Source of the DNA: an uncultured virus (IMG/VR IMGVR_UViG_3300023109_001853)
Taxonomy: Duplodnaviria; Heunggongvirae; Uroviricota; Caudoviricetes
IMG/VR virus record: IMGVR_UViG_3300023109_001853
Reading direction: 5' to 3' (one strand)
DNA: 20,000 nt
Both the position numbers and the translations under genes were made by a program. Positions 4,426 to 19,861 of the stretch are shown in pieces (position 1 is the first letter of the stretch; every line of letters begins with the position of its first letter). The notes below the pieces were generated by a model. The model had not been told where the DNA came from, did no database searches, and saw nothing but the letters and a program-made list of their open reading frames with translations.

Positions 4426-4632
4426 ATGAGTGAACAAAAACAATGGTTATATAAGGTAGAAGACATTTTTGAAGACATACCCGATGATCCAAAAAATGTT
4501 AATATGAATATTCCAAAAGAAATTTCAGACGAAATTGGACTAGTCCCTGGAGATCCGATTAAAATAAGCTGGGGAGACCAAGGTAGTATTATTATAGAAA
4601 AAATAGAAAAGGATTCAAGTGGCGAAAAATAA
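4426..4632 (+). CDS. AbrB/MazE-like DNA-binding domain protein
   Basis: [33 protein letters not shown] fits the swapped-hairpin pattern; AGGAG SD. Confidence 0.6.
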
Positions 4633-4840
4633 CGAGTTATTTGAAATGGAGGGCACAGTAGTAGAAGTTCTCCGTAATCAGATGTTTAAAGTTGAATTAG
4701 ATAATGGGCATATAGTTACTTGCTACACAGGCGGCAAAATGCGTAAATTTAAGATACGTATTGTAGTAGGTGACAGTGTTACGGTAGAAATGACACCATA
4801 TGACTTAGAAAAAGGCCGCATTATATATCGTGACAAATAG
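4619..4840 (+). CDS. infA: Translation initiation factor IF-1
   Basis: [19 protein letters not shown]...[36 protein letters not shown] start. Confidence 0.95.
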
Positions 4841-5677: not shown

Positions 5678-6223
5678 ATGGCAAAAGTAATTAGATCTAA
5701 GTGGTATAAATTTATAGGCGATGCCTACGAATATCACGGTCAAGATCGAGACTCCAAAGAACGCACACACAGTGATGTAGGTTGGCGCCTTCGTAGTAAA
5801 AAATACGGCGGAGTTGCTACATTTGCTAAAATTCCTTTAATCGAGTCTGTACAAGATAGACCGTGTCCTCTAAAAGAAAAACAAAGCGGAATTTATATCT
5901 TGCGAGATAGTATTTTTCCTGAAGGGTTTTATATTGGCAAAGGAAAGTGTATACATGATCGAGTATGGAAACACGGTGTTAAACTTGAAGGTACTAGTAA
6001 GTGGAACAAAGGCGTTGAAACTACAAAAGAATTTGAAAAATATCGCCAATTGCGTAATGCAAAGGGTTTAACAACACTAGATGATGTTGAAATTGCTTTT
6101 TGGTTTACTGATAAAATTGATGAGCTAGAAGATCAGTTGTTAGGTGCTTATACTGCAAAATATAATAAAACTCCAAGTTGTAATGACACTGACGAAGCAA
6201 TGTTCGACGAATGGGACATTTAA
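5678..6223 (+). CDS. GIY-YIG nuclease family protein
   Basis: SGIYILRD...FYIGKG..I.DR..KH; later LE and P.CN motifs. Confidence 0.75.
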   Translation: MAKVIRSKWYKFIGDAYEYHGQDRDSKERTHSDVGWRLRSKKYGGVATFAKIPLIESVQDRPCPLKEKQSGIYILRDSIFPEGFYIGKGKCIHDRVWKHGVKLEGTSKWNKGVETTKEFEKYRQLRNAKGLTTLDDVEIAFWFTDKIDELEDQLLGAYTAKYNKTPSCNDTDEAMFDEWDI

Positions 6224-8055: not shown

Positions 8056-9174
8056 ATGACTAACTGGCAAGATTTTAAGTTTCAAGTACAATACATTGAA
8101 ACAGATAACCTAGCATTTGCACGTCGAGCATTTGCATCATTTAACGGTAAGGGCAAAAAACGCCAAAGTGCGTTTTCAAGATTGCGTAACGAAGTTCACG
8201 TAGTACGTATTGATAACGATACAACAGATGAACAAGATGTAGCAATCGAACGTAAAGTTTCTATTGTAGAAAAGCACGATTGCTATCCAGTAGAAGAAAA
8301 AAGTTCACTAGCACAATACCCCGGAACGTTTACTAACGTTTCAACATTCCGAACACTATCAGAAGCAGAACTAGAAGTTGCGTGTAACTGGCACAATACA
8401 TATTTCCATTATGTACCGTTACATGTTAGTTGCTTTTTTATGTTTAGAGACATTGTAAAAACATATGATGCTTACAAGAAAGACCTAACACCAAAATTGT
8501 TAGAAGAACTTGCGGCAATGGTGCAAGGCTTGTTTGGTGACTTACCGCAATACCAAGAAAGTGTAGCTGAAGCATATCGTAAGTATCACACAACAAAGTA
8601 CGGCTTCAAAGGTAGCTGGCATGATGATGCTTATGCTGTTGCACTACTACAATTGTACAAGCGACTAGGTGGTGAAGAATCTATTCCACTTACTTTGCTT
8701 GATCGTTTTGAAGACCTAGACACTTACTTTGATCCTGCAATTTTAAACATTGCTAACTTTAACTTTGAATACCAAGAAGTTCCACGCAGGCCAAACCCAA
8801 TGCGTAATCTAAATGAACTTAATGGTGGTAAACAAAGTGTTGTGAGCTTGCAAAATAGAATTGATACACTTGCTGACAGTCATAAGTGGAAGAAAGCCGT
8901 ACAACGCCTGCAAGAGTCGGATTGGACATTTGATATGTCTCGTTTACCAAAAGTTGAAATGGTTCGATTAGGAGATATCTTAATTGACGAAGATATTCAG
9001 CGTATCTTAGATGCTCCGCATTGTGCAGGCATTATTGATGGTAACAAATTTGACCCAGCACTACTACAGTGTCTACAATGTATTAAGAACTCCAATGGCG
9101 AGTTTATTAGCATTGATGGTCAGCATACTGCCAGTGTACTAGCAGGTCTAATTGTAGCAGGGTTGCTGGGCTAA
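8056..9174 (+). CDS. ParB/Srx-like DGQH-motif protein, apparently circularly permuted
   Basis: IDEDIQRILD and ISIDGQHT lie at the very C-terminus; ARRAFASFNGKGKK lies at the N-terminus. Confidence 0.7.
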   Translation: MTNWQDFKFQVQYIETDNLAFARRAFASFNGKGKKRQSAFSRLRNEVHVVRIDNDTTDEQDVAIERKVSIVEKHDCYPVEEKSSLAQYPGTFTNVSTFRTLSEAELEVACNWHNTYFHYVPLHVSCFFMFRDIVKTYDAYKKDLTPKLLEELAAMVQGLFGDLPQYQESVAEAYRKYHTTKYGFKGSWHDDAYAVALLQLYKRLGGEESIPLTLLDRFEDLDTYFDPAILNIANFNFEYQEVPRRPNPMRNLNELNGGKQSVVSLQNRIDTLADSHKWKKAVQRLQESDWTFDMSRLPKVEMVRLGDILIDEDIQRILDAPHCAGIIDGNKFDPALLQCLQCIKNSNGEFISIDGQHTASVLAGLIVAGLLG

Positions 9175-9524
9175 TGGAACAGTATTATTTTTATATAGTA
9201 CAAGGTGATAGAGCTGGCTTTGGTATTGCACAAGATATGAAGCACCGAAGTCAGCAATACTCAAGCCACAGTGGCAGGATAGTAAACTTTCCTTTTGTAT
9301 TTGCAGGGCATAGGCCACATGCAAAAGCACTTGAAAGAACTATTAAGACTGAGCTGTACGATGACATTTGGATGATAGAAGACTGGCGAACTGAATGGCT
9401 AAATGACAATATCACAATTGACATGTTAAAGGAAATAGTTGATAGGTTAATAGCAGAAAGACACTATAAAGTAGAGTGCATTGCTACTGATTACAACTTT
9501 ACAAAAGACTTGACAACTTCGTAG
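9174..9524 (+). CDS. GIY-YIG/T5orf172-like protein
   Basis: YFYIVQ..AGFGIAQDMKHR..QY...ALERTIK...TEWL; TAATG-coupled to the upstream gene. Confidence 0.6.
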   Translation: MEQYYFYIVQGDRAGFGIAQDMKHRSQQYSSHSGRIVNFPFVFAGHRPHAKALERTIKTELYDDIWMIEDWRTEWLNDNITIDMLKEIVDRLIAERHYKVECIATDYNFTKDLTTS

Positions 9525-10654: not shown

Positions 10655-10745
10655 AGAAGAGCATGAATTAGGTAAAGCAATTTTTGGAGTTACTGTGCTG
10701 AGTATGATTCCTATTTTTTGGATGATTTGTTTGTTATTCTCATGA
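10647..10745 (+). CDS. Small membrane peptide (32 aa, not in the ORF track)
   Basis: MNEEEHELGKAIFGVTVLSMIPIFWMICLLFS; fills the gap and overlaps the tilS start by ATGA. Confidence 0.55.
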   Translation: MNEEEHELGKAIFGVTVLSMIPIFWMICLLFS

Positions 10746-11347
10746 TTAAACTACAAGGCAAAGTTCCTCGCAAAGTCTATGTTGCATGCTCAGGTGGAGT
10801 TGACAGCATGGCTGCACTTGACTTTCTAAAACGCAAACACGATGTATTTGTACTGCATTTTAACCATGGCACAGATTATGGATTTAAAGCACTTGAGTTC
10901 GTGAGCAATTATTGTGCAGACAACGATATTGGATTCTTAACTAATGTTACAGGACAAGAGCGTGAAAAGCAAACAAGAGAAAGCCAAGAAGAATACTGGC
11001 GCAGTATTCGTTATGATTGGTTAGAGCGTTGCACTGAACGACAAATTGTTACTGCACATCATTTAGACGACTGTGTAGAAACTTGGGTATGGAGTAGCAT
11101 GCATGGTACAGGCAAAATTATCCCCTACAGTCGTAATGAAAGAGTACTTCGTCCATTCCGTAGTACACGTAAAAGAGATTTAGAATTGTGGGCTAATTTA
11201 AACAATGTACCTTATATTGAGGATGACAGTAATAAAGATACATGTTATACTCGTAACTATATTAGACATGAAATGATGCCCAATGTGTTACGAGTTAATC
11301 CGGGTATTCACAAAACTATCGCTAAGAAAGTAAAAGAAGATGTTTAA
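10742..11347 (+). CDS. tilS: tRNA(Ile)-lysidine synthetase (PP-loop domain only)
   Basis: VACSGGVDSM, HFNHG, AHHLDD.VET, RPF, DDSN...YTRNYIRH; probable start MIKLQ at 10742. Confidence 0.88.
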   Translation: MIKLQGKVPRKVYVACSGGVDSMAALDFLKRKHDVFVLHFNHGTDYGFKALEFVSNYCADNDIGFLTNVTGQEREKQTRESQEEYWRSIRYDWLERCTERQIVTAHHLDDCVETWVWSSMHGTGKIIPYSRNERVLRPFRSTRKRDLELWANLNNVPYIEDDSNKDTCYTRNYIRHEMMPNVLRVNPGIHKTIAKKVKEDV

Positions 11348-15664: not shown

Positions 15665-16101
15665 CTCAGGCACAACACTAGATAACTACTAAGCTAAGGC
15701 ACACTTCAGGCACATCAGAACTCCGTTTGATCGAGGCAGCTCGATCCGTCAAGAACCAGCCGAGGTAACGCTCGTCGCCGGTGGTGTGGCGTGTTCACCC
15801 CTTTGCGAAAGCAAACATCTCCTAAACACTATAACACTAGGAACGAGGTTATAGGTAGCGCAAGCTATGTCAGTGCAGGTAAGGAAAAGACTAGAGTCCT
15901 TGGAGATGCCCTTAAACACCTGCTTCCAATGTCTCGGCTGGATAAAACTCACATGAAGCTAGATTAGGTGGAACCTGTAAATAGGTTCCGTCTGACTGAA
16001 ACAATCTACATGAAACTAAATTAATTATAATCCATATACGAAGTATAATACGAGTCTTGTTAAAGACGAGTAGTTTCGTGTGAGCGAAACTTAGTATATG
16101 G
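15665..16101 (+). ncRNA. Unclassified highly structured non-coding element (candidate ncRNA); boundaries and strand approximate
   Basis: No credible ORF; multiple stems including 15756-15767/15930-15941, 15948-15961/16071-16084, GNRA hairpins at 15802-15815 and 15856-15867; G-U pairs and GNRA loops favour the + strand. Confidence 0.65.
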
Positions 16102-16130
16102 TTGACATTGTCTCTAAACTGTTGTATACT
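16102..16130 (+). promoter_or_regulatory. Sigma70-type promoter
   Basis: TTGACA-N17-TATACT. Confidence 0.8.
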
Positions 16131-16405: not shown

Positions 16406-16626
16406 AAACTATAGCAGATAATAAAGCAATGCTCACTAATACTCGTAGTGATGTTGCAGTAGAAGCAGAAGCAGATAACTTTAGAGAAGGCGAGCGGTTT
16501 GATGCTTTCCTAGCAAACAATAAGATTCCTATGTATTGGAATGGAAAAGTATTTGTAGGTAATGCACACGGGATGGAGTTTACTTCACCTGGCCCGCAAG
16601 TACGTTATATTAAGGAGACACGATAA
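16402..16626 (+). CDS. Hypothetical protein
   Basis: ATGA/TAATG-coupled ORF. Confidence 0.7.
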
Positions 16627-17243
16627 TGCCATTAGTACCTATGGTAGTAGAACAAGAAGCTCGCGGCGAACGTTCATACGACATTTACAGCCGCTTAATG
16701 AAAGACCGTATTGTTATGCTAAACGGTCCAGTAGAAGATAACATGGCTAACTTGATTGTAGCACAGATGTTGTTCCTAGAGTCAGATAATCCTGACAAAG
16801 ATATTCAATTGTATATCAACTCGCCAGGCGGTGCTGTAACAGCAGGATTAGCTATCTACGACACCATGCAGTACATCAAATGCGATGTGCGTACTATTGT
16901 AATGGGCCAAGCATGTTCAATGGGATCGTTCCTAGCACAAGCAGGCACAGCAGGCAAGCGTGTAGTACTGCCAGAGTCACGTACAATGATCCACAGAGTG
17001 TCAAGTGGCACACGTGGCACAAGCGGCAGTGTACATGTACAAGAGCTACAGTTTGAAGATGCACAACGAGCGTTCGAAGAGTCTAAGAAAGTCAACAAGC
17101 GTCTTACAGAGCTGTATGTTAAGCACAACACAGCAGGCAAGAAGTATGACGAACTATTTGAAACAATGAAGTTTGATACATTCCTTACAGCTGAACAAGC
17201 TGTTGAGCAAGGACTTGCTGATAAAGTAGTGGAGAAACGATAA
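16626..17243 (+). CDS. clpP: ATP-dependent Clp protease proteolytic subunit
   Basis: [26 protein letters not shown] (catalytic Ser), MIH (His), [17 protein letters not shown]. Confidence 0.97.
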
Positions 17244-19770: not shown

Positions 19771-19861
19771 GGAAGCGTGGCTGAGTGGTTTAAAGCACCC
19801 GCCTACTAAGCGGACGAGGGTTAATAGCCCTCCTAGGGTTCGAATCCCTACGCTTCCGCCA
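19771..19861 (+). tRNA. tRNA-Ser (ACT), long variable arm
   Basis: Acceptor GGAAGCG/CGCTTCC; G73 discriminator plus CCA; anticodon loop CT-ACT-AA; variable arm GAGGGTT/AGCCCTC; GGTTCGAATCC. Confidence 0.9.

Follow-up and report, generated by a model that had tools for sequence, protein, structure and literature searches.

The window analysed here, a stretch of 20,000 nt from an uncultured virus (IMG/VR IMGVR_UViG_3300023109_001853), contains in its long intergenic gap an element that consists of an RNA of ~310 nt (about 15706–16014) and an AT-rich tail. T4-like aquatic phages of ~350 kb, a size implied by CheckV estimates on related contigs, carry the conserved RNA in well over 100 contigs; it also occurs in small elements integrated in the genomes of freshwater bacteria, and in every group of the family it ends in the same way, with ACTC and a 7-nt repeat (R1), a hairpin, and ATCT and a second repeat (R2). 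From comparative analysis we tentatively propose that replication may be primed by RNA at this locus in the manner of ColE1 RNA II, which would make it an origin of an unusual kind; we regard this reading as quite possible.

Fold of the RNA core and its setting

By its gene content (three tRNAs and genes for ClpP, a peroxiredoxin and a PP-loop protein), the window looks like a section of a large aquatic phage of the T4-like kind. The gap lies between the end of a DUF6552 gene (15651) and the strong sigma-70-type promoter of the downstream operon, which is the 3′ boundary of the element and stands outside the RNA (Table 1). As first noted, the core is richer in GC than the window (0.48 versus 0.38). 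The AGGCAC boxes at its 5′ edge have counterparts throughout the phage family, where AGGC(A/T) boxes recur at the RNA 5′ end, often ~21 nt apart; such a box is found upstream in 147 of 157 copies with enough flank, sometimes inside the upstream gene, and the boxes persist where the GIY-YIG gene described below is inverted. A promoter search at the window locus identified none for the RNA itself, and the TAACTA box (15683–15688) that the original prediction took as a possible promoter is absent from most relatives in the alignments. The window has an ACTACT motif, a possible promoter element, immediately before the RNA (15683–15692); the Polynucleobacter copies (L560–L582) have it as well, ~100 nt upstream of the anchor. 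A protein-coding reading of the gap was rejected: it holds short frames only, no ORF is conserved, and indels disrupt the frames in relatives, a 58-codon frame among them.

Every stem drawn in the original prediction is present where it was placed. Compared with shuffles, the single-sequence fold is modest (z −2.9 for 15665–16101 and −2.0 for 15706–16020). Covariation in 33 aligned non-redundant homologues, the 33 shortest of 73, supports the fold: the 43 named pairs are 94.4% paired and 21 of them show two-sided changes, slid controls are 31–44% paired, and no shuffle of 500 reaches the observed pairing, a figure that differs from a probability because the homologues are related by descent. 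The number of distinct compensatory combinations is convincing for the fold. The paired columns contain 99 G-U cells versus 10 A-C cells, which points to folding on the + strand, as RNA. Large RNAs that have several pseudoknots and covariation support are uncommon and have often turned out to be ribozymes or core machinery.

The pseudoknot predicted between CAUCUCC and GGAGAUG (pseudoknot 1) shows two-sided changes at every pair tested. When the two strands were anchored in 144 sequences, they gave 20 distinct combinations with 81% pairing, compared with 50% after shuffling, and none of 2000 shuffles did as well. Pseudoknot 2 is new, is formed by the loop of the hairpin at 15882–15900, and is 100% paired, with nine distinct combinations that are all fully paired (0/2000 shuffles). 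A third pseudoknot is possible between the loop GGAA (15840–15843) and UUCC (15924–15927); this pairing holds in 99% but is invariant, so that the pseudoknot is a candidate.

Ten close relatives, 84–98% identical to the window in the core versus 48–75% in the tail, allow the individual stems to be followed. All cells are paired in the 5′ hairpin (70/70), which is common to the window RNA, a second subgroup of the major type and the group B RNAs, as well as in pseudoknot 1 (70/70), the UUUGC hairpin (50/50) and the GGAACC hairpin (130/130). The helix thought to close domain 1 is retained in its core (100/120 cells), toward its center. The 14-bp helix proposed to close domain 2 is not conserved, since its outer pairs fail (107/140 cells); a 7-bp part of it is kept in 10/10 relatives, and a rival hairpin at 16073–16090 fits better (60/60 cells). 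Alternative pairing at this helix is possible in the window subtype. A 5′ alternative partner for the repeat hairpin was tried and rejected (44/80 cells).

The window copy has no Rfam match at gathering level, and at E ≤ 10 nothing beyond two chance matches. In agreement with the earlier note, which recognised no RNase P, tmRNA or group I or II intron consensus, it has no Rfam match or ARAGORN call as any of these or as a tRNA, and a resemblance to RNase P-like or group I-like motifs noted by eye was lost once divergent homologues were seen. Of the description as a large unclassified structured phage ncRNA with a pseudoknot, the structure is borne out, by covariation and on the + strand, and the word unclassified needs the caveat that distant relatives carry Rfam RF01718.

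Table 1. Coordinates of the element and its borders in the window
Feature	Position	Strand	Basis or remark
Three AGGCAC boxes at 5′ edge	15668–15713 (starts 15668, 15697, 15708)	+	sequence
5′ hairpin	15729–15746	+	compensatory A-U to G-C change
P1, closing helix of knotted core	15756–15767 with 15930–15941	+	only central pairs conserved
UUUGC hairpin, window-subtype-specific	15802–15815	+	loop varies
Pseudoknot 1	15816–15822 with 15902–15908	+	6/6 pairs covary
Hairpin with invariant GGAACGA loop	15829–15854	+	stem with two-sided changes at 5/7 pairs
Variable-length hairpin	15856–15867	+	12 nt here, up to about 60 nt in relatives
Pseudoknot 2, new	AGU 15872–15874 with ACU 15890–15892	+	loop of hairpin 15882–15900; 3/3 pairs covary
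Helix GCAGGU/ACCUGC around hairpin 15882–15900	15875–15923	+	both 100% paired, compensatory changes
Repeat unit 1: ACTC + R1 (ACATGAA)	15947–15957	+	sequence comparison
Hairpin between repeats	15964–15995	+	130/130 cells
Repeat unit 2: ATCT + R2 (ACATGAA), identical to R1	16004–16014	+	end of conserved core
AT-rich tail, degenerate form of family tail	16015–16090	.	C-GAA-G triloop hairpin 16035–16047; final hairpin 16073–16090
Sigma-70-type promoter, downstream clpP-containing operon	16102–16130	+	11/12 consensus; −35 box retained in relatives

Matching repeats and the AT-rich tail

R1 equals R2 in 217 of 221 distinct copies, over 19 repeat sequences, in a set that was pre-filtered to at most two mismatches and therefore somewhat overstates identity. 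Re-anchoring R1 on the hairpin gives 210 pairs, of which 201 are identical, four differ at one base and five are anchor errors. The repeats change between lineages yet match, and the changes include a double A-to-G change between otherwise near-identical copies. Positions flanking the repeats are not identical, and the repeat spacing covers 47–67 nt continuously. Within the hairpin between the repeats, the 3′ strand is almost invariant in the group and the 5′ strand varies through G-U. A third covarying partner for the repeat was found neither within 320 nt upstream, nor between the repeats, nor in the tail (mean rank 0.46–0.64; chance 0.5). Mini-ORFs starting in the repeats were rejected as an explanation, being lost where the repeat changes.

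Tails of the family average 0.34 GC versus 0.44 for cores, and the first part of the window tail (16015–16050) has 17%. Hairpins of the type C-GNA-G or C-GNNA-G occur on the + strand of 119 of 210 tails and on the − strand of 121 of 210, compared with 1 of 162 control stretches on each strand. The commonest tail loops are triloops (C-TTC-G, 92; C-GAA-G, 63; C-GTA-G, 21), and a tandem-GA hairpin motif is present in 187 of 210 tails. Apart from its single C-GAA-G hairpin, the window tail is degenerate and lacks the tandem-GA hairpin of the family. A review (PMC13037366) describes C-GNA-G-type loops as extraordinarily stable in DNA and much less so in RNA, and places such DNA loops at the phage G4, ssiA and N4 initiation sites.

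Spread among phages and integrated Polynucleobacter elements

Two sequence patterns from the 5′ half led to nine contigs, and a 3′-end pattern gave at least 120 matches in IMG/VR, of which 118 were retained and two dropped by eye; a metagenome scan yielded 82 homologues among 119 loci. DNA searches of GenBank phages and plasmids gave no real match. Because the element stands beside the two downstream proteins in only three of the 116 loci fetched with those proteins, its position is not fixed to clpP. The window subtype is in fact located elsewhere than the usual family locus, beside clpP or glyA, and ClpP was found in none of five major-type contigs, which are fragments. A 3′-domain model matches the element in 14 of 20 large contigs, most of them chosen for carrying the element or the nuclease, with a single copy in 13 and two in one. 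The six contigs without a match comprise five incomplete fragments and one complete but smaller, distant phage.

In the major type, gp46-like and small genes are followed by a SegE-like GIY-YIG gene (PF19835, phrog_447; little more than the catalytic domain), the RNA and a convergent baseplate-hub gene. The GIY-YIG gene is directly upstream in 57 of 60 loci with enough upstream sequence, and its stop codon falls inside the 5′ end of the RNA. The position between gp46 and the baseplate hub is kept despite flips of the GIY-YIG gene or inserted genes. A protein-side search gave 119 loci with 700 nt downstream; 103 of these fall into 16 clusters, each with a representative in which ORFs are few and the 3′ layout recurs, and in at least 12 of the other 16 loci the element is further on or beyond an inverted gene. 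The RNA thus belongs to the locus and not to the nuclease, and the GIY-YIG gene is dispensable. The SegE-like family is labelled NAD synthetase in PHROGs and in many phage records (for example L210, 460–906), which looks like a propagated mis-annotation.

The 5′ domains of the RNA differ greatly between subgroups and the 3′ repeat-and-tail module is constant. In 7 of 13 representatives (group A), the 5′ domain, the first 141 nt, is Rfam RF01718 (Polynucleobacter-1), with scores of 72–106 bits at a cut-off of 37; the other six representatives and 20 major-type loci have no Rfam match, the window copy has no RF01718 covariance-model match above 37 bits, and the threshold is reached only by group A relatives and bacterial copies. 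Nevertheless, the major-type HMM matches the group A locus L276 (E 2.5e-9), one 3′-domain model built from all phage groups recovers each of them, and group A shares the gp46-to-baseplate junction with the family's usual locus. On this sequence comparison, the window RNA is related to Polynucleobacter-1 at family level, by the 3′ domain (repeat, hairpin, repeat), the tail and the locus that its family shares with group A, whereas the Rfam model spans 141 nt only and the window copy has another 5′ half in place of that domain. The repeats, tail, phage range and satellites all lie outside the model. Weinberg et al. (2010, PMC2864571) list 16 examples of Polynucleobacter-1 as possibly cis-regulatory, with no function given in the portion available, and in their 16-sequence alignment a few rows run past the 3′ end of the model. 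Literature searches gave no description of this RNA other than PMC2864571, and fragments of it may sit among the 8,497 DNA-virus candidates of PMC10690425 (Fremin et al., 2023). The present comparison contributes the link between the major type and group A, the window subtype that has no nuclease gene, the rule of matching repeats and the recognition of the satellite-like elements.

A GTDB scan returned 23 loci, of which 18 were judged family members and five chance matches. The Polynucleobacter-type records have the full repeat-and-tail layout with repeat sequences of their own; they are linked to the family via RF01718 and layout, the phage 3′-domain model having no match to them. In five regions read (L604–L606, L608, L609), RF01718-type copies are carried by elements of ~9.5–14 kb where both ends are seen, which are integrated at tRNA genes and bounded by a duplicated tRNA 3′ end. 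They are satellite-like and apparently undescribed (L604, 2080–12972; L606, 10385–19949), and they are sporadic, with 2 of 151 sampled family genomes above the cut-off. They carry genes for two tyrosine recombinases, one large and one small, for DUF6641, which no paper in the literature search names, for a T4-like clamp-loader ATPase and for unknown proteins. The clamp loader (phrog_168) is present in 4/4 scanned elements, and the satellite ATPase matches a gene, the phages' own relative of this clamp loader, in four of five large phage contigs (27–30%). Among 21 scanned proteins, a set smaller than all ORFs, none has a primase, helicase or Rep as best match. One conserved helical protein of 270 aa gives a confident model (pLDDT 86.5) that has no match at E ≤ 0.001 in PDB or BFVD and only unnamed clusters in the Atlas. 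We infer that these phages infect Polynucleobacter. In L604 and L605, a repeat of 60–75 nt, partly the tRNA-Phe 3′ end, occurs in many copies through the island, which suggests repeated insertion at the same site.

Possible functions of the locus

In the proposed origin, the RNA would fold during transcription and present R1, which, being identical to R2, is complementary to the R2 template strand and could re-anneal to it. This pairing would hold the duplex open as an R-loop running into the AT-rich tail, where mini-hairpins formed by the displaced DNA would serve for loading of primase or helicase; the phage replisome would clamp the RNA at its 3′ end and extend it. On this view, each integrated element would act as a satellite that has an origin and a clamp-loader subunit and borrows the rest from a helper phage. 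A primer RNA plus origin would explain most simply why an RNA-type body is combined with a repeat that drifts and still matches, with a tail bearing DNA-type hairpins on both strands, and with capture by elements carrying a clamp loader. The alternative raised in the original prediction, a replication origin, now looks at least as good as its ribozyme, and the two readings fit as one unit, an RNA body with a DNA-structured tail.

The similarity to ColE1 RNA II lies in a long folded RNA that precedes an AT-rich stretch with hairpins, in an upstream segment of the RNA that could pair with the template strand of its downstream copy, and in the presence on small elements without a recognised Rep. 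For ColE1, the persistent hybrid requires pairing of RNA to template (PMC4412123). ColE1 differs in using pairing of rG with dC, whereas the repeats here are not G-rich; there is also no sequence or Rfam similarity, the core here is pseudoknotted, the setting is phages and integrated elements rather than plasmids, and the persistent R-loop, RNase H processing and priming of ColE1 would here be predictions. Rfam gave no match to an antisense RNA I on either strand. T4 oriF and oriG, which use a MotA-dependent middle promoter, resemble the locus in belonging to a T4-like phage and, if it is an origin, in a transcript that would run into an AT-rich stretch to be unwound and in a role of the clamp loader, which T4 R-loop origins need (PMC3016281). 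These T4 origins need no specific RNA sequence or fold, in contrast to the strongly conserved RNA here, and three pseudoknots thus exceed the known needs of priming alone, which counts against an origin. Also counted against it are the displaced locus and degenerate tail of the window subtype, the contig with two copies, absence from 72,556 plasmids searched, and two conserved satellite proteins without assignment that could be an unrecognised Rep. The single copy in 13 of the 14 matching large contigs and the kept locus position count in its favor. Cumulative GC skew in one complete genome turns ~6 kb from the element but tracks the coding strand, and is therefore uninformative. A fuller scheme, in which a clade of aquatic jumbo phages would prime replication by a triple-pseudoknotted RNA and an R-loop formed via a swap between identical 7-nt repeats, Polynucleobacter satellites would have captured the RNA origin and clamp loader, and Polynucleobacter-1 would be its 5′ domain, seems to us doubtful as a whole.

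Among other readings, a trans-acting large ncRNA or ribozyme (a scaffold, RNA-processing, homo-oligomeric or GOLLD/ROOL/RaiA-like RNA), with R1 and R2 as twin docking or protein-binding motifs and the tail as a terminator region, is a serious if on the whole unlikely candidate. The ribozyme-like compact core with two covarying pseudoknots, the invariant purine-rich loops and the RNA-type wobble speak for it, as do contigs covering part of 15682–16012 in 4/4 metatranscriptomes examined out of 24 listed, from four studies (7–10 differences, ~96% identity). These lend weak support to expression, since the metatranscriptomes were chosen for holding the stretch, the contigs show neither strand nor level, and such libraries can contain DNA. 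Such an RNA would however leave unexplained why a repeat whose two copies must match drifts freely, the triloops of minus-strand DNA and the carriage by clamp-loader satellites, and it sits poorly with 5′ domains that vary so much beside a constant 3′ module. GOLLD, ROOL and RaiA are large, ornate RNAs of unknown function in phages or aquatic metagenomes, and the RNA here is likewise large, ornate and from aquatic phages, but neither the window nor the 33 homologous loci tested match GOLLD, ROOL, RaiA or IMES in Rfam. HDV-like ribozymes form a nested double pseudoknot with a catalytic C in J4/2 and P1.1 between L3 and J1/4. The strand order of pseudoknot 1, the enclosing helix and the inner hairpin resembles this arrangement in the theta and CPEB3 members; the RNA here differs in that no catalytic C is conserved in the matching linker, the linker before the ACCU strand varies in the alignment, the inner loop pairs 5′ of the helix, and Rfam gives no match. 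Another cis-acting signal of helper and satellite, for packaging, recombination or regulated antitermination, with a phage protein binding both repeats, appears quite unlikely. It would account for an element common to phages and integrated elements, and the satellites carry two tyrosine recombinases, enzymes whose overlap regions are 6–8 identical bases; still, phage copies have no adjacent recombinase, the continuous repeat spacing is not helically phased, and a pseudoknotted RNA would be superfluous for a DNA site. An MK(I/V)xEI-type N-terminus is encoded close to the element in phage and satellite alike, but the resemblance is not significant by BLAST (E 0.14).

That the RNA serves the small SegE-like nuclease as guide or scaffold is suggested by the gene order of the major type and by a protein reduced nearly to its catalytic domain. 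We nevertheless hold this to be very unlikely: the gene adjoins neither the window copy, nor its subtype, nor the bacterial elements, it was found elsewhere in none of five window-subtype contigs (11–35% complete), it is inverted or separated in other phages, and in cultured phages that have the gene, such as Melnitz (73% identical), no RNA follows it. A variable guide segment is also lacking, and the obligate nuclease–RNA linkage and variable guide of OMEGA-like RNA-guided nucleases have no parallel here. Identical short repeats around a hairpin, with a pseudoknot upstream, are the logic of DRT2- or telomerase-like repeat synthesis, and the element matches it, so that the RNA might be a template on which a reverse transcriptase jumps from R1 to R2. 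This is highly improbable given that no RVT_1 was detected in 5/5 large phage contigs (one complete) or 5/5 carrier bacterial genomes, with controls detected in both and very divergent enzymes possibly missed; the element differs in this from retrons and DRT ncRNAs, which have a cognate reverse transcriptase, and no tandem copies of the R1–R2 unit were seen. Least probable of all is a purely single-stranded DNA structure with no functional RNA, which would suit the DNA-type hairpins of the tail but has against it the excess of G-U over A-C cells, the GNRA-type loops, the pseudoknots and the presence of the element in RNA libraries.

In this widespread group of uncultured phages of ~350 kb, the RNA almost always occurs as a single copy. 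Through it, an Rfam motif that has lacked an explanation since 2010 would gain a function that can be tested. If the locus is an origin, it reveals how these jumbo phages begin replication and points to a new phage–satellite pair; otherwise, it is an RNA still to be explained, in which the rule of identical repeats is puzzling. Cultured Polynucleobacter strains carry the RNA on small integrated elements, where it can be tested without phage isolation.

Several further observations concern the contigs and the window. The contig with two copies (G009) has different RNA subtypes at 76.3 kb and 255.9 kb (L274, L617), one at the usual locus and one elsewhere, and may show how the window subtype moved. 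Many contigs (L149–L228) end ~600 nt or less from the element at no fixed position, probably by assembly breaks at a sequence common to strains. Phage-like contigs with the GIY-YIG gene and the RNA occur inside bacterial MAGs (L578 and L563); they are probably mis-binned, and L563 looks chimeric. The window itself carries genes of translation and proteolysis at 4619–4840 (IF-1-like, recognised by eye), 10718–11347 (PP-loop/TilS-like) and 16626–17243 (host-type ClpP), and two further GIY-YIG-like ORFs (5678–6223 and 9174–9524), unrelated to the SegE-like gene, one of which was recognised by eye and the other by a weak T5orf172 match. At 19771–19861, ARAGORN calls a tRNA-Ser with the anticodon ACT, which is unusual for bacteria and phages.
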